Notes: a model not told the origin generated them from the letters alone. 64,000 bases of DNA from a phage (GCA_012813795.1 GCA_012813795.1_4087.1), one strand, 5' to 3'; positions 40,749-50,641 are shown, counted from the stretch's first letter. Numbers and translations: made by a program.

Positions 40749-41024
40749 TCAGTTGAACCCCCATAAATGTGCAAATGAACTGTCATTTCTAACCAATTCT
40801 TTTGCATACGAACTAATTGCATTCACAACCATAATATTAACACAATTCAACTCATGAAGAACAAGTTCATTACCACATAATGAACAAGATGTACTATAAA
40901 ATGGTGTTGGTAATTTTATATAGCCACCTCTTAATGGAAAGACTTGTTCCTCTATTGTCAACATTGTATCAGACGGAGTGACAAACATCTCACATTCAAG
41001 ACAACAAATTTTCACTTTATCCAT
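40749..41024 (-). CDS. zinc-ribbon protein (91 aa)
   Basis: CCLECE...CSLCGNE. Confidence 0.5.
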   Translation of the reverse strand: MDKVKICCLECEMFVTPSDTMLTIEEQVFPLRGGYIKLPTPFYSTSCSLCGNELVLHELNCVNIMVVNAISSYAKELVRNDSSFAHLWGFN

Positions 41025-41511
41025 TATTCATCTCCTTCAGTACAGTTCTGATATCCTCAAAGGTCTGAACAAACCAGCGGTGTTCATCACTAACATCAAT
41101 GATCTTACCACTATACAAATAATAATGCTCAAACTTCAGAGTACTTTTACGCAATCGTTCAGCAAGTTCAGGATTCTGCATTATTTTAGCACATATCGCA
41201 TCCTGGATTACATTTAATCGCTCAGGTGTCATCTCTATACGGTCATGCATATATGTGTTTGCAGCGGCTTTCGCTGCGGCTCCTGACACCTTTCTAAGTT
41301 CTTCATGCTGTTGTCCAGTGAGGAACCAGAAATAAAAAGACTCAACCGAAGGAAACCATCCATATGGTTCTAGTGTAAAGCTATGGGGAGAAAAATTAGA
41401 TAAATCTCTCCCTAGCTTAGTTTTCCCTTTACTGTAGATATTGATATGCGTGTATCCATCTTCAGTACAGTCAATGTAGTTTTTTGGTTGTTCATCAGGA
41501 AATTCAAACAT
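41017..41511 (-). CDS. possible NADAR (YbiA/DUF1768)-like protein (164 aa)
   Basis: LSNFSPHSFTLEPYGWFPSVESFYFW and AKIMQNPELAERL resemble NADAR core motifs as I remember them. Confidence 0.35.
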   Translation of the reverse strand: MFEFPDEQPKNYIDCTEDGYTHINIYSKGKTKLGRDLSNFSPHSFTLEPYGWFPSVESFYFWFLTGQQHEELRKVSGAAAKAAANTYMHDRIEMTPERLNVIQDAICAKIMQNPELAERLRKSTLKFEHYYLYSGKIIDVSDEHRWFVQTFEDIRTVLKEMNNG

Positions 41512-42978: not shown

Positions 42979-43007
42979 TAAAAAGGGAGTACATTATTGT
43001 ACTCCCC
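42979..43007 (-). terminator. rho-independent terminator
   Basis: GGGAGTACA-ATAA-TGTACTCCC followed by T5. Confidence 0.7.
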
Positions 43008-43013
43008 AAATAC

Positions 43014-43568
43014 TTACAATTTAATTACTTCCTGAATACCAGTTTCCATTGCTTTCTTAGTGCGAGTATCAGAAACGACAGTACACAAATGTTCAATATC
43101 TTTACTTGGGAATGTATTAGAATCGATGATTTTTGAGTTCCAGAATCCTTTACGGAATTTCTCATAATCAGTACATTGTTCAATTTTCATTTTCTGCAAG
43201 TTATTGAACTTCTCACGCCCTGCATCAATTGTAACCATCAACTCTTGATAAATCTTAGGATCAAGATTTGGAACTTGTTGTTGAATCTGTGACATTACAA
43301 ATTTCTGATCAACTCCTTCACGTCCCTTAAAGTACGCTTCGATTGTCTCTTTCAATGCATCCTTATATTTGTCCGATACTTGAACCTTTTCTTGAATAGT
43401 TAGTGTATAACTACTCAGTTGACTTTCAGATGCATCGTAGTACTTTTTAATATTACCTTCAAAATTCACTGCACTATCATGTACTGAACTATACATACTT
43501 ACAGTTGCAAACACACCAATAACAAAAATCACCAACATACCAACCAACAAAATCATAGGCTTATTCAT
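43014..43568 (-). CDS. LemA-like membrane-anchored protein (184 aa)
   Basis: N-terminal TM plus helical body; VPNLDPKIYQELMVTIDAGREKFNNL...DYEKFRKGFW resembles the LemA C-terminal half. Confidence 0.4.
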   Translation of the reverse strand: MNKPMILLVGMLVIFVIGVFATVSMYSSVHDSAVNFEGNIKKYYDASESQLSSYTLTIQEKVQVSDKYKDALKETIEAYFKGREGVDQKFVMSQIQQQVPNLDPKIYQELMVTIDAGREKFNNLQKMKIEQCTDYEKFRKGFWNSKIIDSNTFPSKDIEHLCTVVSDTRTKKAMETGIQEVIKL

Positions 43569-44662
43569 ACATTATTTTCCTTCATATAAAGACCAACAAC
43601 AATCGACAGTACAATGAGAATCAAAGATGCAGCAATCATAACATCTTTTCGTGGTTCCATTTTAACTGCCATGTATTCAAACTCTTTATTAGACAGACGT
43701 TCAAACTTAGTCTGTATATTATGAACCTGAACTTTAAGTAAGTCAAGTGTTAATACTTCATTTAACGCATCCATTCGCATTTTAGAATGCAATTCTTCAT
43801 TATTCATACCTTTAGCGAATGACGTACTATTGAATGATTTAACGACACCATCATTACTGATACCAAAGAACATAATCACATCGTTCTTCTTGCCACCACG
43901 CCAGATTGAGGTTACTGCATCAACAAAATTCACGTCATGATAATCATATACTAGTACTTGAATGTTTACTTGCTTTTGTGCACCTAATGTTTTTAACACT
44001 TCACGTAAATATTCATCATACCCACTCACATCGTAATCAGTTTTATTAATAACGTGGTGTGTTTTATAATAATCACTAATACTTGGATATTCAGGTAAAG
44101 ATTCCAGATATTCTTTATCATACATAGAAATCAAATCTTCAGTACTGAATAATGAGTGTTTATCTGCAAATAGATAATTTATGTATGTGTTTTCTGCTGC
44201 TGCATAATCACCATTTTTCACTTCTTGCCAGCGTGGTGGAGTTTGTGTTCCTTGTCTATTGACCCTTTCAATCTCAAACTTACCAACAGTGCTTTTAACG
44301 TACCAATCAATCTCATACGGATAGTCGAATACCTTATAAGATTCACATTCACGTTGTGAGCGACCTTTAGAATCATAGGTAGTCCAGCAACGCTCATGCC
44401 AAGTATAGTGTTTACAAGAACTTGATTGTGATGTGCAGTTCTCACGTTGGCTGTATTTCTCTGTAACCTGACCATTTAGAATTTCAACATCACGAAGTTG
44501 GCTGTAGTTTATCAAGTATGATGTTCCCAATACCAACACCGCTGCAAGAAAGCAAATTCCAGTATGAATTAGCAATTCCTTTGTTGTTATGGCAGTATGG
44601 TATTTGAACTTCATGATTAGAACAACTATCAAACTTGGTATTAGAAGAATTGCTAAGTTCAT
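43565..44662 (-). CDS. membrane protein with TPM-like domain (365 aa)
   Basis: N- and C-terminal TMs; QVNIQVLVYDYHDVNFVDAVTSIWRGGKKNDVIMFFGISNDG resembles the TPM/YgcG core; start moved to MNLAILLI. Confidence 0.4.
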   Translation of the reverse strand: MNLAILLIPSLIVVLIMKFKYHTAITTKELLIHTGICFLAAVLVLGTSYLINYSQLRDVEILNGQVTEKYSQRENCTSQSSSCKHYTWHERCWTTYDSKGRSQRECESYKVFDYPYEIDWYVKSTVGKFEIERVNRQGTQTPPRWQEVKNGDYAAAENTYINYLFADKHSLFSTEDLISMYDKEYLESLPEYPSISDYYKTHHVINKTDYDVSGYDEYLREVLKTLGAQKQVNIQVLVYDYHDVNFVDAVTSIWRGGKKNDVIMFFGISNDGVVKSFNSTSFAKGMNNEELHSKMRMDALNEVLTLDLLKVQVHNIQTKFERLSNKEFEYMAVKMEPRKDVMIAASLILIVLSIVVGLYMKENNV

Positions 44663-44672
44663 TGTGTTACCT

Positions 44673-45374
44673 TTAATAGTTCCCGCGTTCGTTGATTGCA
44701 TTTAAGCAATATGAAACCTGGATAGCTTCACGTGCTGCATCGAATAATGGGTGGTGAAGTTCTAGACCATAAAGACCATGATCAGCAACCATCTCCACAA
44801 ACTTTTTCAATTGTACATCAACAATGGAATCCATGTCAAATTTTTCATCTTCAGTTAGGCGATTCTTAACACTTCGGGCATTCTGTGGTGCATTATATTT
44901 CCACAATTCGCCCACACCAAACATTTTACGATGGTTTGCTTGAAGAATACTACAATCGAAGTGGCAGCCATTACCCCAAATTTCAATATTGTTCTCATTT
45001 CCATTAAGATCATAACGAAGTGAATTCCACAAATCAAGTACATTTTTTGTTTTATACAAATTGTTCTGACTACCGGAAATAATCTCAGGATCTGTCAACG
45101 TGAGTGTGCTAACTACTTCTTCATATGCACCTTTATGATCATTTTGACACATATTCATCCAAAAGTTCATTGAACCTGCATCAACTTTAAGACCAGCATC
45201 AATTTGTTTTTGGAATGGTAGTTTAACATATGCATAACGTGAGATATCTTTCATTGGGTTAGTTGGAACTAAAACAATTGCGTAATTTGGAATGATAATA
45301 TCATAACCACTACGTTCTGGAGTTCCGAAAGATTCAATATCAACTGCATAGTGTGTAACTTTATCTGCCATCAT
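44673..45374 (-). CDS. DEDDh 3'-5' exonuclease (233 aa)
   Basis: Exo I AVDIES, Exo II NGCHFDCSIL, Exo III HHPLFDAARE. Confidence 0.6.
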   Translation of the reverse strand: MMADKVTHYAVDIESFGTPERSGYDIIIPNYAIVLVPTNPMKDISRYAYVKLPFQKQIDAGLKVDAGSMNFWMNMCQNDHKGAYEEVVSTLTLTDPEIISGSQNNLYKTKNVLDLWNSLRYDLNGNENNIEIWGNGCHFDCSILQANHRKMFGVGELWKYNAPQNARSVKNRLTEDEKFDMDSIVDVQLKKFVEMVADHGLYGLELHHPLFDAAREAIQVSYCLNAINERGNY

Positions 45375-45391
45375 ATTATCCTTAGATAATT

Positions 45392-45426
45392 AATAAAATA
45401 TGTGCCCATTATACAATGGGCACATT
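45392..45426 (-). terminator. terminator hairpin after the TelA gene
   Basis: ATGTGCCCATT-GTAT-AATGGGCACAT followed by ATTTTATT. Confidence 0.55.
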
Positions 45427-45436
45427 TATATGTCAA
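45408..45436 (-). promoter_or_regulatory. sigma-70-type promoter embedded in the terminator hairpin
   Basis: TTGACA-N17-TATAAT; the -10 lies in the loop and 3' arm of hairpin 45400..45425. Confidence 0.55.
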
Positions 45437-45439
45437 CTA

Positions 45440-46567
45440 TTACTTGTTAGCTTTGTCAGCAATTTCGCGAAGAGTTTCTTCAAGTTCGTAGGACAACTGT
45501 GCAATTTCATGTTTAGCACGTTCACGTTCTTCCTTACCTTTCTTCTCTTCAATCAGTACTGCTTCGATGCTATCAATCATTGTTTTGTGTACGTTACGCA
45601 ATGTTTTAATATCCACAATACCACGGTTATTAGCTTTAGCAGCATCTAACATATTAGTTGCTACCATTTTGGAGTTCACTTCAAGTAAACGGTTAGTTTC
45701 ATTATCAATCAAATTACCCAACTCGTTATCTTTGCGTTGGCGTTCAGAAATCAATTGTTCTGCTAGTTGTGATTTCCATGCAGGGATGACAACAGATTTC
45801 AGATCTTCAAATTTAGATACAGTGTTTAGATTCACTTTCTTCATACTCATCAGACGAGGGCCACTAAGCTCACACATCATGATAAGACGGCGAATCTTAT
45901 CTTCCTGTTTAGACAATGCTTCACAAATCATCTTCTGCTCTTGGATTGCGAAAGAATCCACATCAGGGTTCGCTTGCATTTCTTCCAGTTTAGCATCTTG
46001 AGTTTTTGTGACTTGTTCCAATTCAACCAGCGTATCGCGTAATTCAAATAGATAGGCTTTATTCTCATTGTAAGCAGTATCCAACCACTCACATTCACTA
46101 TGTTGGCGATTGATACCAACCTGGAGTGTGTTCATGATTTCATCAATCTGCTCTTTACTATTCTTGTACTGATCACCAACTTTCTGTTTTGCATTGACAA
46201 AGAGTTTTTTGACCCAACCTACAATTGATTTATCATCTTGTAGACTGTCAATATCAACAGCACGGGTTAGGGATAAAATTGTGGTAATTGATTTACCAAA
46301 TTCAGTATTGTCATCAGTGACGTTCACTTTTGACATGATTTCATCAGCCAAACGTCCTACACCTGCACCAGCAGTTGTTCCAATGGTGTTAATGTTCTGA
46401 ACAGTTAAAGACATAGTGTTACCTTTTGTATCTTTCAGTACAGGTAACGTTTTAGCCTGTTGGTCGAAAATATCACTCGCATCAAAAGTATTACCTTTGG
46501 TTTTGGTTGTAGTACGCTTAGTAGTTTTGGTAGTTGCTTTTTTTGGGTTGATTTCTTTCTCGGACAT
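45440..46567 (-). CDS. telA: TelA (toxic anion resistance) family protein (375 aa)
   Basis: VIPAWKSQL and NRGIVDIKTLRNVHKTMIDSI match TelA signatures (IPLWKNQ, RGIVDIETLK) as recalled; long helical protein. Confidence 0.65.
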   Translation of the reverse strand: MSEKEINPKKATTKTTKRTTTKTKGNTFDASDIFDQQAKTLPVLKDTKGNTMSLTVQNINTIGTTAGAGVGRLADEIMSKVNVTDDNTEFGKSITTILSLTRAVDIDSLQDDKSIVGWVKKLFVNAKQKVGDQYKNSKEQIDEIMNTLQVGINRQHSECEWLDTAYNENKAYLFELRDTLVELEQVTKTQDAKLEEMQANPDVDSFAIQEQKMICEALSKQEDKIRRLIMMCELSGPRLMSMKKVNLNTVSKFEDLKSVVIPAWKSQLAEQLISERQRKDNELGNLIDNETNRLLEVNSKMVATNMLDAAKANNRGIVDIKTLRNVHKTMIDSIEAVLIEEKKGKEERERAKHEIAQLSYELEETLREIADKANK

Positions 46568-46615
46568 TAGGTTAATTCCTCATTTAATTTAAGATAGTGT
46601 TGCTCTGTGATAAAC

Positions 46616-46644
46616 ATTATACGAGCAACACACATTCATGTCAA
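46616..46644 (-). promoter_or_regulatory. sigma-70-type promoter
   Basis: TTGACA-N17-TATAAT-GTTTAT. Confidence 0.7.
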
Positions 46645-46653
46645 CAACTATTT

Positions 46654-47775
46654 TTACTCTTTATCACCGTAAGCTAAGTTGCGAATGATAGCTGCGGTAT
46701 CAGCGTCTACTGCTTTTCCAACTTGTGTCTGTAATCGATTGATAATCAACGGAATAGTAATAGTTTGGATATCTACCATTCTATTCATGTCAATCTGATA
46801 CTGTTTACTCACATTAACTATACTAGCTTCAGTCATTGCGGCGGTAATGCTCATTTTCATGATACGTTCAAGAGTCAGTTCATATTCAAATGCATCATCC
46901 AAACGACGAATAGCATACTCACACCCAATTTTTCCGTATTCTAATTCATCTTTAATATCACGAACTTCAGTTCGAATTTCATTAAACAATGAAGTTAAAC
47001 CACTAAACTTATTCGTATCATATTTCACTGCATCATTCAATGCTTTCATTACTTTCGGTAAATCGGCCTGTTGAACCTTTATATCCGCTTTACCAAACAG
47101 TTTTTGTGTAAATGTTGGTTTCAATGGGAATAACGATTCAAGTGCAGTGGTTAAGTTATTCATTAATGTTCTAACATAATCACTATGCTTATGTAATGCA
47201 TCATTAAGATCCAATTGACGCTCTGAAATTTTTTGAATCTTCACACCAACTTCCTGTGCACATACTGGTAAGTTTACGAACCAATCCAGTACTTTTACAG
47301 AATCCTTTTTAATAGTTTCAGGAAATTCCATCCATTGTTCGATATCCGCAATGCGTTCATCTTCTGGATCAATTGGTGTTTTAGTCAGAACAATTGGTGC
47401 TGGCACTTCAACCACTGCAAGTTCTGGACGTGGTTTAAGACGACCTTCTTTCCATGCTTCGTATTCACGCTCAAGTGGAGGTACTGGCAAATCACGAATC
47501 TGAATATTTTTAAAATGAATTTCATCTTTCATGAGATCTAACATATTCAAACGTGTGTTTGAATAGTAAATTTTTGATAGTTCTAAATTACGAACATCAA
47601 ATTCGGGATTTCCCATTGAATCATAAGTACGTTTTACGATTACATTATAAAAGTACTTTTTATTGTCGCGACGATCATACTTTTTCAGTAATGAATTCAA
47701 CACAAACTGGTAATCAAACTCTTGGATTTCAATTTCTTGTTTGTTCTCAATGAAAAAATATTTTCCTTTCATCAT
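46654..47775 (-). CDS. divergent TelA-like helical protein (373 aa)
   Basis: C-terminal half is helical with TIPLIINRLQTQ in the position of TelA IPLWK; similar size to the neighbour. Confidence 0.4.
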   Translation of the reverse strand: MMKGKYFFIENKQEIEIQEFDYQFVLNSLLKKYDRRDNKKYFYNVIVKRTYDSMGNPEFDVRNLELSKIYYSNTRLNMLDLMKDEIHFKNIQIRDLPVPPLEREYEAWKEGRLKPRPELAVVEVPAPIVLTKTPIDPEDERIADIEQWMEFPETIKKDSVKVLDWFVNLPVCAQEVGVKIQKISERQLDLNDALHKHSDYVRTLMNNLTTALESLFPLKPTFTQKLFGKADIKVQQADLPKVMKALNDAVKYDTNKFSGLTSLFNEIRTEVRDIKDELEYGKIGCEYAIRRLDDAFEYELTLERIMKMSITAAMTEASIVNVSKQYQIDMNRMVDIQTITIPLIINRLQTQVGKAVDADTAAIIRNLAYGDKE

Positions 47776-47811: not shown

Positions 47812-47840
47812 ATTCTATCTAACTTGATTAGTATTGTCAA
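47812..47840 (-). promoter_or_regulatory. sigma-70-type promoter
   Basis: TTGACA-N17-TAGAAT. Confidence 0.6.
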
Positions 47841-47866
47841 CACCTAAATGAAAAAAAGGACGCACC

Positions 47867-48685
47867 TTAGCACGTCCCTTTGTTGTTCTTCTCTCTGTAC
47901 CAGTTGAAACCCTTAACTGGTGGGTACTTCTCATCTTTAGGTGGCTCCGGCATATCATACACCGTTGCATTCCTAAATTTTAAAATGTAAACTTCCATAA
48001 GACGTATGATAGCATAGTTTAAACATTTCTGTGCTCTTTCTTTCCAAAAATGTTTATATGGTTCTGGACAGTTTAGATAGTCCAGTTTATACATACCCAT
48101 TGCTGCTTGTACAAATCTCTGTGCTGAAAATTTACGTTTGTCAACCTTACTGGCTCTGTACTGATCAGATGTCCAGCTTTGTACCCCAGGTAAATGACAA
48201 AACAAATCAAACTCTACCATAGAACTAAAATATTCATTATGACCGTGTAGTTCACCATAGAACAATGCCTCATTGACAGTCTCATATAATGAAAAATTCA
48301 TATGTATATGTTCATTATCAAAGATGTTCTTTAGTTCTTTGTACGTCTCTGGTACTGGTGGTTCAGGTAACAACTCACCAAATGTCTCAATGCACCAGAT
48401 TTTCCACAATCCTTTTGTGAATTGTACTTCACGTTCTCTATCACTGTCAATATAAAATGTTTTTTCATTAATGAAAACCTTTCGTGCCATATATGCTTTA
48501 AAGATTGCATCGGGATCGATATCATCACGTTTAATGTCATCCCATCCCTTACCAATCCTTGAAATCTCAAATCTACGCATATACATTCTACAAGCTAAAT
48601 CTTTTGTAGTACTGCGACGATACTTTTCATCCTGAACCAATTTAGTACTTTCATGTAGAGATTTCAACATATTTAAAATTCTCAT
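47867..48685 (-). CDS. hypothetical protein (272 aa)
   Basis: ORF track. Confidence 0.6.
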   Translation of the reverse strand: MRILNMLKSLHESTKLVQDEKYRRSTTKDLACRMYMRRFEISRIGKGWDDIKRDDIDPDAIFKAYMARKVFINEKTFYIDSDREREVQFTKGLWKIWCIETFGELLPEPPVPETYKELKNIFDNEHIHMNFSLYETVNEALFYGELHGHNEYFSSMVEFDLFCHLPGVQSWTSDQYRASKVDKRKFSAQRFVQAAMGMYKLDYLNCPEPYKHFWKERAQKCLNYAIIRLMEVYILKFRNATVYDMPEPPKDEKYPPVKGFNWYREKNNKGTC

Positions 48686-49362
48686 CTTAGCACCAGATAC
48701 TTCCCATCTCTACCAACTATATACTGATTACCACTACGTAGTACTGTATAGTTTTCACCTAATATAGAACTAAGTCTTGATGTATCTAATTTGGTTTCAG
48801 TTTTCAGCATAGATTTGATGTATTCCTCAGATGCAAAACCACTACCAGTGCTATAACATAAATCACCATACACGGTTTGTAGTTTTAGGTTATTACCCTC
48901 TTTGAGTACAGTTATACCAGCATAATCCAAAAACTCGCTTAGTGCATCTGGAGTTCCTAATTCTACACGTTGTTGAACTTCATCAAAGTCTACATCAATT
49001 GGATCATTAACACCATAAAGCTGAATTTTCCATCCAGGATTTGGACAAATGTTTTCAATAGTCTTAATTAGAGTTAGTAATTTTTCTGGAAACTCTGCAT
49101 TACGTTCCATTTCAACAAATACTTGATATCTACCATCTAGGTTAGGTGTTTCAGCAGCTTCAGTATCTACCGCAGTGATTGGTGATTTCTCAATGAAAGA
49201 GGACAAATCATATGCAGCATCAAAATTATTCAATACCTGAAACATAACAACGATATTACCATCTTCAATCTTGGGTGTATATTCATCAACACTGATAATA
49301 GGGTAAATCAGATCTTTAAGTACTTCAGGACGTAATCCCTGTTCATTTAATTGTTTAGACAT
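48682..49362 (-). CDS. hypothetical protein (226 aa)
   Basis: ORF track. Confidence 0.6.
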   Translation of the reverse strand: MSKQLNEQGLRPEVLKDLIYPIISVDEYTPKIEDGNIVVMFQVLNNFDAAYDLSSFIEKSPITAVDTEAAETPNLDGRYQVFVEMERNAEFPEKLLTLIKTIENICPNPGWKIQLYGVNDPIDVDFDEVQQRVELGTPDALSEFLDYAGITVLKEGNNLKLQTVYGDLCYSTGSGFASEEYIKSMLKTETKLDTSRLSSILGENYTVLRSGNQYIVGRDGKYLVLR

Positions 49363-49937
49363 TACATTCCTCCTTTTTGTTCATCAGGTGCACCAAATTC
49401 TGCATCTAATTCTTGAACATCCTGCTCATCTTCCATACTCATATCAGGTGTATTTTGATCTAAGTTCATTGGATTACTATTAAATTCAGATGCCATTAGT
49501 TTGTATTCATCAAAGCTTTCTGGATTAATTAGATTTCGAGGTATTTGAAAACGAACTAGTAGTACTGGTACTCTTTCGGTTCTTGGTACATTCACTGATC
49601 CATGTTGAGTTGCTTGTGTTTTCATATCATTACGACTACGAGGCTTCGCAATTGGTCGTATTTCGTAATCAGCTTTAACTTGAACTTTAGTGCCGTGTTT
49701 TTCTAAAACTGTGAATGCTGTTGGATCTGGAAAGTTTTCTCTATAATATTTGAATGTAACAGTACACCAGTACTTAGTAACATTTGGTCCCTCAACTAGT
49801 TCACCTTCAATTACACCAGTATAGGCATATAAATCATTGTCATCAAAATATTTTTCAACCGCCAGAAGAATGTCTAATATTCCAGAATTATCATATAATT
49901 GCTGGATAGCATTGTCTGTTGTATTCATATCTTCCAT
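49362..49937 (-). CDS. hypothetical protein with acidic C-terminal tail (191 aa)
   Basis: Start moved to MEDMNTT (AAGGGA SD); tail MEDEQDVQELDAEFGAPDEQ resembles SSB tails, but no fold evidence. Confidence 0.5.
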   Translation of the reverse strand: MEDMNTTDNAIQQLYDNSGILDILLAVEKYFDDNDLYAYTGVIEGELVEGPNVTKYWCTVTFKYYRENFPDPTAFTVLEKHGTKVQVKADYEIRPIAKPRSRNDMKTQATQHGSVNVPRTERVPVLLVRFQIPRNLINPESFDEYKLMASEFNSNPMNLDQNTPDMSMEDEQDVQELDAEFGAPDEQKGGM

Positions 49938-50020
49938 GTTTTTTATTCCCTTAAAAACTTGAACATTTATATTATTTACTACTTTGAAAACAATGAAAGG
50001 GGAATCAAGTTCCCCTATTG

Positions 50021-50641
50021 TTATTTTTTCATTAGTTCGTAAATTTTTAGACGAAGTTCGCTCCAATTATTAACATAATCAAAGCCGTTGTTATGCTTGT
50101 ATTCATGGTTATGACACGCACACATCATAACAGCAGGTATATCCAACTCTATAGCCGTTTCTATATTTTTAATATAATCGTCAATCAAAAATTTAACGTC
50201 ATATTGAGCTTTTAATTTCATTAGTGCTGATTTTTTGGATTCATACATTTCAATGATAATGATATCATCAAAAATACCCTCACCAAAGACATTAATGAGA
50301 TTCACATTACGGAGAACTTCTCCGTGTCCGAATGTACCCGATTTAGTCAGTACTACAAATTTATCATATGGGAACTTATCACGTAATTCTTGCATAATTC
50401 CAACCGTGTTATGTTCTACTGGGTCAAGTAGACCAAACTCATAAGAACGATGGTTGAAGTGTTTTAGAATCTCTTGCACTTCAGGTTGAGTAATTCCACC
50501 CAACCACTGACACAAATCATATTTTTCTGGATATGGTGTTTCTGGATGAATATCATAATGTTCTTTAACAAAATTATATAGACCACCAATGTGGTCCAAT
50601 AGCACTTCATCACAATCCCATACTACACAACGTTGTTTCAT
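50021..50641 (-). CDS. HAD-superfamily hydrolase, 5'(3')-deoxyribonucleotidase-like (206 aa)
   Basis: N-terminal DxD motif VVWDCDEVLLD; start moved to the TAATG overlap with the clamp-loader stop. Confidence 0.5.
   Translation of the reverse strand: MKQRCVVWDCDEVLLDHIGGLYNFVKEHYDIHPETPYPEKYDLCQWLGGITQPEVQEILKHFNHRSYEFGLLDPVEHNTVGIMQELRDKFPYDKFVVLTKSGTFGHGEVLRNVNLINVFGEGIFDDIIIIEMYESKKSALMKLKAQYDVKFLIDDYIKNIETAIELDIPAVMMCACHNHEYKHNNGFDYVNNWSELRLKIYELMKK

Follow-up and report, generated by a model that had tools for sequence, protein, structure and literature searches.

Three independently inherited units, including a TPM-LemA-like membrane gene pair of large phages, in a five-gene region of a RaK2/121Q-like jumbo phage

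Here we describe five consecutive genes of a jumbo phage, at positions 43014 to 47775 of a 64,000-nucleotide stretch of assembly GCA_012813795.1 (the window, by which we mean this whole 64-kb stretch), and find that they are a clade-specific juxtaposition of three independently inherited units. Unit 1 consists of TelA and a TelA-like paralog upstream of it, which we call p1; unit 2 is a predicted DEDDh exonuclease; unit 3 is a translationally coupled pair encoding a predicted TPM-domain membrane protein and an anchored LemA-like protein. The most useful new point is that the last pair is a self-contained cassette, conserved among about 480 large virulent phages that infect Gram-negative hosts. 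The presence of TelA in this phage group and the idea that it serves superinfection exclusion were already known, and the outcome as a whole is a revised annotation of a jumbo-phage region, not the description of a novel type of system. The annotations to be corrected are those of the TPM gene ("hypothetical"), the LemA-like gene ("structural") and the exonuclease gene ("metallopeptidase" or "peptidase").

Gene order, promoters and independent inheritance

The window derives from a RaK2/121Q-like jumbo myovirus (a coliphage). The 4.8-kb region shares 98.4% identity with Escherichia phage A4 (Asteriusvirus); other Asteriusvirus phages and Klebsiella phage RaK2 match it less well. All five open reading frames (ORFs) lie on the minus strand, at the coordinates proposed in an initial annotation of the sequence: p1 (46654..47775, 373 amino acids (aa)), TelA or p2 (45440..46567, 375 aa), the exonuclease or p3 (44673..45374, 233 aa), the TPM-domain protein or p4 (43565..44662, 365 aa) and the LemA-like protein or p5 (43014..43568, 184 aa). 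A longer alternative frame for p4 extends to 44701; homolog alignments and the A4 annotation favour the start at 44662. The stop of the TPM gene overlaps the start of the LemA-like gene by 4 bp. The same five-gene order is annotated in the records of A4, Turkey5 and RaK2. A defence or counter-defence system was considered and rejected, as none of the five proteins has a PADLOC match at E up to 0.1, and weak sub-threshold Pfam and NCBIfam matches (MG280, Spore_III_AF, TrbI, DUF753) were discarded.

The region contains three promoters of the sigma-70 type and is divided internally by a terminator. Its upstream boundary is a terminator-like hairpin (47854..47881, minus strand; 12-bp stem, five G-C pairs, T tail) that closes the upstream gene (48685-47867). 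Promoter P1 (47812..47840, minus strand; TTGACA-17-TAGAAT, 11/12) precedes p1, and promoter P2 (46616..46644, minus strand), a perfect TTGACA-17-TATAAT that the initial annotation did not list, precedes TelA. TelA is followed by a compact element (45400..45436, minus strand) in which a hairpin (45425-45400; 11-bp stem, five G-C pairs) overlaps promoter P3 (45436-45408; perfect TTGACA-17-TATAAT, 12/12). The -10 hexamer of P3 lies inside the hairpin; use of P3 and formation of the hairpin, at the DNA or RNA level, could be mutually exclusive. A last terminator-like hairpin (42984..43007, minus strand; 10-bp stem, five G-C pairs, T tail) ends the exonuclease-TPM-LemA transcript. The bracketing promoter (47812..47840) and terminator (42979..43007) of the initial annotation, and its combined terminator and promoter after TelA, were thus all recovered.

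Most of this layout recurs in RaK2, which has an 11/12 site upstream of its p1 ortholog, a TelA gene preceded by a perfect promoter and followed by a terminator, and a hairpin equivalent to 42984..43007 after the LemA-like ortholog; at the spot equivalent to P3 it has no strong promoter. Across the 64-kb window we counted 11 perfect TTGACA-N16-18-TATAAT sites, all on the minus strand, against 0.14 expected from shuffled sequences, which argues that the region is genuinely transcribed by the host RNA polymerase. Rfam returned no family in the region on either strand.

The phyletic distribution of the genes separates three units. With the TPM family as bait, 80 viral loci were retrieved and clades were defined at 45% identity. 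In 82 of 83 viral loci, representing 16 clades, the TPM gene is immediately followed by the LemA-like gene, and TelA, p1 and the exonuclease stand beside this pair only in 17 RaK2/GAP32/121Q-type loci. Beyond these two, no neighbouring gene is conserved across the 16 clades. TelA is missing from 66 TPM-LemA loci, and the three units were never found together within 5-10 kb outside the RaK2-type clade; reciprocally, TPM, LemA and the exonuclease are all absent from nine TelA loci of other phages. The independent distributions, the separate promoters and the terminator after TelA together argue for three units and not one module.

The initial annotation had instead proposed a single integrated envelope-stress operon, with the exonuclease included among its cooperating products. 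This proposal accounts for the constancy of order and strand in A4, RaK2, Turkey5 and all 17 RaK2/GAP32/121Q-type loci, although the order does not hold outside that clade, and for the promoter and terminator that bracket the block. However, the first three genes each have a consensus promoter of their own, the terminator after TelA is present both here and in RaK2, and TPM-LemA loci without TelA and TelA loci without TPM, LemA and the exonuclease both occur. We therefore regard a single cooperating operon as very unlikely.

The TPM-LemA-like cassette

The two genes of unit 3 are usually closely spaced, with an approximate median gap of 19 bp and a gap of at most 60 bp in 68 of 79 loci. The TPM protein is found in 480 phage records; among the hosts of these phages, the ten commonest genera are Gram-negative without exception. 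Its carriers comprise Ackermannviridae, the RaK2 group, Aeromonas T4-like phages, Erwinia and Xanthomonas jumbo phages, Acinetobacter phages and ICP1, and thus include the well-studied ICP1 and Kuttervirus/CBA120 group. Among 185,579 species genomes the phage-type TPM protein occurred at 18 loci, mostly on contigs of metagenome-assembled genomes (MAGs), and the adjacency to LemA was kept in 12 of 17 bacterial or MAG loci. In the four phage records that we inspected, the TPM gene is labelled "hypothetical protein" throughout, and the LemA-like gene is a "structural protein" or "virion structural protein" in three and a "lemA protein" in one. A literature search returned no paper on LemA or TPM in phages, and the survey of Ter and TelA systems by Iyer et al. 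mentions neither (PMC7824862).

The TPM protein is polytopic, as first proposed, with two N-terminal transmembrane helices, a beta-rich domain, a predicted TPM domain (about residues 200-320, with the motif W-x-G-G-K-K-N-D) and a C-terminal transmembrane helix. The window protein itself has no match to Pfam TPM (PF04536); 4 of 49 diverse members of its family do match, with a best E of 1.7e-6, and the TPM fold was recognised in p4. Together these results are in keeping with the TPM/YgcG-like domain that had been suggested for this protein. A PDB search with the p4 profile gave nothing useful. The beta-rich domain (residues 57-161, window 44180-44494) precedes the TPM domain and carries four conserved cysteines (Cys76, 83, 92 and 106). 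It has no counterpart in the sampled bacterial TPM proteins, and no fold could be assigned to it.

The LemA-like protein has one hydrophobic segment, a putative signal-anchor at residues 1-30, and none elsewhere; a helical soluble domain follows. A profile built from 32 phage loci found as its top PDB match 2ETD, a 'lemA protein' (E = 7.4e-4, in two collinear segments), and comparison with four bacterial LemA proteins by hhalign gave 93.9% (P = 1.6e-7, 129 columns), the reversed control reaching 0.2%. Six of the 32 family members also match Pfam LemA (PF04011) at E up to 0.05, the best at 4.2e-4. Close homologs, including a PDB search with their profile, gave nothing useful. The description of p5 as a LemA-like anchored protein is upheld by these comparisons.

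Cysteine patterns suggest on which side of the membrane these proteins lie. Cys132 and Cys162 of the LemA-like protein covary across 74 distinct members, with both present in 46, neither in 28 and one alone in none, a disulfide signature that points to a periplasmic soluble domain. In agreement with this location, the proteobacterial LemA proteins that we retrieved carry lipoboxes. Taken with the cysteines of the TPM protein, with the Gram-negative nature of the commonest hosts and with the finding of known TPM proteins in the lumen or outside the cell, these features suggest that the soluble domains of both proteins are extracytoplasmic and that the large loop of the TPM protein is probably periplasmic.

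Bacteria have a comparable pair, in which an anchored LemA-family protein is encoded next to a membrane-anchored TPM/YgcG protein. The statement that such pairs are known from bacteria agrees with our sampling, in which the two genes are adjacent and co-directional in three of four replicons (Parabacteroides, Ralstonia and Halomonas being represented). The phage version differs from the bacterial one in several respects: the TPM gene comes first in 81 of 82 phage loci and the LemA gene in bacteria, the TPM protein of phages carries two transmembrane helices at its N terminus together with the extra Cys-rich beta domain, and its family is nearly phage-specific. The characterised TPM-domain proteins TLP18.3, Psb32 and LMTP1 act in photosystem II assembly or repair; their partners and substrates are unrelated, as a photosystem does not exist in the enterobacterial hosts.

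The p1-TelA pair and the exonuclease

TelA (p2) matches Pfam PF05816 with E = 4.9e-38 and 131.5 bits, against a cut-off of 30, over profile positions 14-331 of 332, and phrog_5890 with E = 4e-131, in full accord with its earlier description as a clear TelA-family protein. It is predicted to be a soluble helical protein that has no transmembrane segment and begins with a basic tail of low complexity. A PDB search with its sequence gave nothing useful, and a genome scan for TelA yielded no confirmed locus, the search patterns being too clade-specific. The family is present in 286 phage records, so that the occurrence of TelA in a lytic phage is less unexpected than the initial annotation had supposed; its presence in this phage group has been published, together with the superinfection-exclusion idea (PMC5114366, PMC7824862). 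A 2016 report noted TelA in 121Q, PBECO4 and slurp01 and gives as phenotypes of the family tellurite resistance and, in Listeria, resistance to nisin and cell-wall antibiotics (PMC5114366). Iyer et al. (2021) listed TelA as a "standalone" gene of group 2.2 jumbo phages, proposed that Ter/TelA sub-membrane structures are used by jumbo phages against superinfecting phages, and raised xenobiotic resistance during pseudolysogeny as an additional possibility (PMC7824862). Our analysis shows that this "standalone" TelA has a conserved, divergent TelA-like paralogous partner, as plasmid TelA does.

That partner is p1, which is predicted to be soluble and to have two domains, one alpha/beta at the N terminus (about residues 1-110) and one made of long helices at the C terminus (about residues 160-370); its AlphaFold2 model has a mean confidence (pLDDT) of 85.9. 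It belongs to phrog_13312, a PHROG family without assigned function, and its family is small, with 29 representatives among 1.84e9 proteins. When the profiles were extended with distant p1 members and with diverse phage and plasmid TelA sequences, hhalign aligned the helical domain of p1 with TelA at 88.9% (P = 2.4e-6, 190 columns) and with KlaA at 87.9%. Reversed and column-shuffled controls reached at most 2.3% and unrelated helical families at most 0.2%, and it is because these controls are clean that we accept the relationship. The divergent TelA-like character ascribed to 46654..47775 thus appears right, with remote support, and p1 is best described as a probable KlaA-like TelA paralog with an added N-terminal domain. 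Pfam TelA matched none of 10 distant p1-family members, nor XaC1_433, and a PDB search with the p1 profile gave nothing useful. The N-terminal domain (reported at window 46654-46983) occurs only in the RaK2-type clade, the distant p1-like proteins of about 300 aa being without it. It received no fold assignment, the matches of the fold search being dominated by the helical domain.

In the window p1 lies 86 bp upstream of TelA; in Xanthomonas phage XaC1 and three metagenomic Ter clusters (loci L100 and L104-L107) a p1-like gene precedes TelA at a distance of 4-10 bp. On three metagenomic phage contigs the p1-like-TelA pair closes TerC-vWA-TerD-TerD clusters. We take p1 to be a dedicated partner of TelA, encoded upstream of it. 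The metagenomic clusters are compact, with the order TerC-(vWA-TerF)-TerD-TerD-p1-like-TelA (L104 155-7627, L107 751-7041, L105 3692-7146); in L104 a SleB-like cell-wall hydrolase and a phosphoribosyltransferase (PRTase) come after the cluster, and a GmrSD-like gene lies near the cluster in L107.

A similar arrangement is known from plasmids. The kilA operon, klaA-klaB(telA)-klaC(telB), is found on IncP (RK2-type), IncHI2 and Pseudomonas plasmids, and as in the phage a shorter TelA-family paralog stands immediately upstream of full-length telA on the same strand. KlaA proteins pass the Pfam TelA threshold (E 2e-10 to 3e-7) and cover only profile positions from about 12 to 250; the helical domain of p1 aligns to both KlaA and TelA over this same N-terminal two-thirds of the TelA domain. 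Three differences set the phage genes apart. The window contains no KlaC/TelB membrane protein, as searched with a KlaC HMM (hidden Markov model) and tblastn, the gene downstream of TelA being the exonuclease; about 110 residues at the N terminus of p1 form an additional alpha/beta domain, which is absent from KlaA and from the shorter p1-like proteins of phages; and p1, unlike KlaA, reaches no Pfam threshold by itself. With these differences, p1-TelA corresponds in the phage to the klaA-telA (klaB) pair of plasmids. KlaA can itself be described as a truncated TelA paralog, and its copy on pK29 (L109 3042-3851) is already a 'toxic anion resistance protein' in RefSeq; the corresponding proteins of L108 and L110 are likewise KlaA.

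TelA is also a hub component of the Ter/Tel system (TerC, TerD, TerF-vWA and TelA), which occurs in bacteria, on plasmids and in some phages. Unlike that system, the window has only p1 and TelA: TerC, TerD and vWA are absent from the 64 kb, as searched by tblastn and phmmer with nine phage proteins at E up to 1. The published hypothesis for Ter/Tel is a sub-membrane structure that bars the entry of phages or xenobiotics (PMC7824862).

Unit 2, at 44673..45374, had been called a DEDDh exonuclease, and this call stands. The protein matches Pfam PF16473 (Rv2179c-like) with E = 1.6e-8 and 34.9 bits against a cut-off of 27, belongs to phrog_255, and has D12, E14, D140, H207 and D212 invariant in 18 homologs. 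Like the Rv2179c-like DEDDh 3'-5' exoribonucleases, which include T5p085-like phage proteins, it thus exceeds the family threshold and keeps the five DEDDh residues, and we predict a 3'-5' exonuclease acting on RNA or DNA. BLAST retrieves it from RaK2-type and T5-like phages only (86 records). Its name in several phage records is "metallopeptidase" or "peptidase", after T5p085, or 'DNA polymerase III epsilon'; the peptidase label is probably wrong. A PDB search with the sequence gave nothing useful. Local mosaicism is evident at this point of the genome, the exonuclease being about 55-57% identical to the copies of 121Q, PBECO4 and phAPEC6 and the neighbouring TelA about 88-90% identical to TelA of PBECO4 and other members of that group.

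Possible roles in the infected cell and neighbouring genes

We lean towards a reading in which units 1 and 3, placed next to each other and to the exonuclease in this clade, both act on the envelope of the infected cell. Under this reading p1 and TelA would form an assembly on the cytoplasmic side of the inner membrane, in line with the proposal made for TelA of the Ter system, and the TPM and LemA-like proteins would form an inner-membrane complex with its bulk facing the periplasm. Both units would be made early and would alter or stabilise the envelope. Their likeliest purpose would be to exclude superinfecting phages or envelope-damaging agents and to keep the membrane intact through a long infection. 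The exonuclease would serve nucleic-acid turnover, its only tie to unit 3 being the common transcript. T4 Imm/Sp and the antiholin RI offer a functional analogy only, as early, small proteins, inner-membrane-anchored or periplasmic, that act on the envelope of the infected cell; the window proteins have no sequence or profile similarity to them, and PHROG and Pfam give only families of unknown function.

Several observations weigh against this reading. The envelope role is itself deduced for both units, and our literature search found no established mechanism for LemA, bacterial TPM/YgcG or TelA/KlaA. TelA and the exonuclease are assigned directly by Pfam and the other three calls of the initial annotation through family or profile comparison, p1, p4 and p5 having no Pfam match of their own: p1 has none at E up to 1 (nor any in NCBIfam or PADLOC), and p5 has none to PF04011 at E up to 1. 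Both p1 and p5 would be remote homologs of the families to which we assign them. For p1, narrower hhalign comparisons of its family gave 1.5% with a single TelA and 0.6% with an alignment of RaK2-clade TelA only, and Foldseek against viral models retrieved its own family and then phage TelA models with weak scores (E 0.065-0.55, TM-score about 0.3). An hhalign comparison between the TPM family of phages and four TPM proteins of bacteria failed (0.3%), so that the identification of p4 as a TPM-domain inner-membrane protein is mainly structural. The proposed topology depends on cysteine patterns and hydrophobicity, the RaK2 record names the LemA-like protein (ORF175) a 'virion structural protein', and the five-gene order, kept throughout the RaK2 clade (17 loci), could mean a functional link.

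Should the envelope role be confirmed, the cassette would join a short list of phage devices for superinfection exclusion and envelope control. Tentatively, and with clearly less confidence than in an envelope role as such, we suggest that TPM-LemA may be an unrecognised, widely conserved, disulfide-bonded and periplasm-facing envelope device, an inner-membrane complex that hundreds of large virulent phages make early and that blocks superinfection or times lysis, comparable in function but not homologous to T4 Imm/Sp or RI. If so, study of the cassette would show the role of the bacterial LemA-TPM pair, and in RaK2-type phages a minimal KlaA-like/TelA pair would complement it on the cytoplasmic side. 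LemA, bacterial TPM/YgcG and TelA/KlaA are all widespread families.

A different purpose would be served if the genes were morons that benefit the host, conferring resistance to tellurite, metals, xenobiotics or antimicrobial peptides on an infected or pseudolysogenic cell. Tellurite resistance of RK2 needs klaA, telA and telB, and the window lacks KlaC/TelB as well as TerC, TerD and vWA. The carriers are moreover strictly virulent large myoviruses, for which a long-term benefit to the host is limited. The phenotypes reported for TelA (PMC5114366) and the suggestion of xenobiotic resistance in pseudolysogeny (PMC7824862) speak for such a function, which we nevertheless hold to be unlikely.

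The LemA-like protein, perhaps with the TPM protein, could alternatively belong to the virion, for example as an ejection protein that enters with the DNA and inserts into the membrane. RaK2 ORF175, PHROG 1383 and the A4 and GG32 records are all labelled 'virion structural protein', and the two genes just upstream of the region are reproducibly virion proteins. However, the close homolog gp143c of phAPEC6 is missing from a 62-protein virion proteome in which gp149c and gp150c are present. The early-type sigma-70 promoter, and the non-structural gene neighbours here, in ICP1 and in Kuttervirus, are also at variance with a structural role, as is the homology to a housekeeping bacterial envelope protein, and the covarying cysteine pair implies oxidative folding in the periplasm, at odds with assembly into virions in the cytoplasm. 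A place in the virion is thus, like the single operon, very unlikely, and the structural label of the LemA-like protein is probably wrong.

Least probable is a dedicated lysis timer analogous to T4 RI/RIII, in which a periplasm-facing TPM-LemA complex would sense envelope events and delay or trigger lysis: the pair is early, membrane-anchored and apparently periplasmic, and the RaK2 group, reported to have no homologs of T holin, RI or RIII, leaves room for a non-homologous system (PMC3622015), but no homology or linkage to holin or endolysin genes was found in any of the 16 clades, and the cassette is also carried by Aeromonas T4-like phages, which have rI.

The genes that flank the region on its upstream side (48682-49362 and 49362-50066, both minus strand) correspond to RaK2 ORF169 and ORF168, virion structural proteins by annotation, and match phAPEC6 gp149c and gp150c by position and mass, both of which were detected in virions by mass spectrometry. 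These virion-protein genes (48682-50066) sit amid replication genes (clamp loader, HAD phosphatase) in a part of the genome rich in sigma-70 promoters. About 1.5 kb downstream of the five genes, the Turkey5 homolog of a gene at 41017-41511 (minus strand) is annotated as a NADAR-domain protein, of an ADP-ribose-processing family. Throughout the inspected part of the window every ORF is on the minus strand and the GC skew is uniformly negative.

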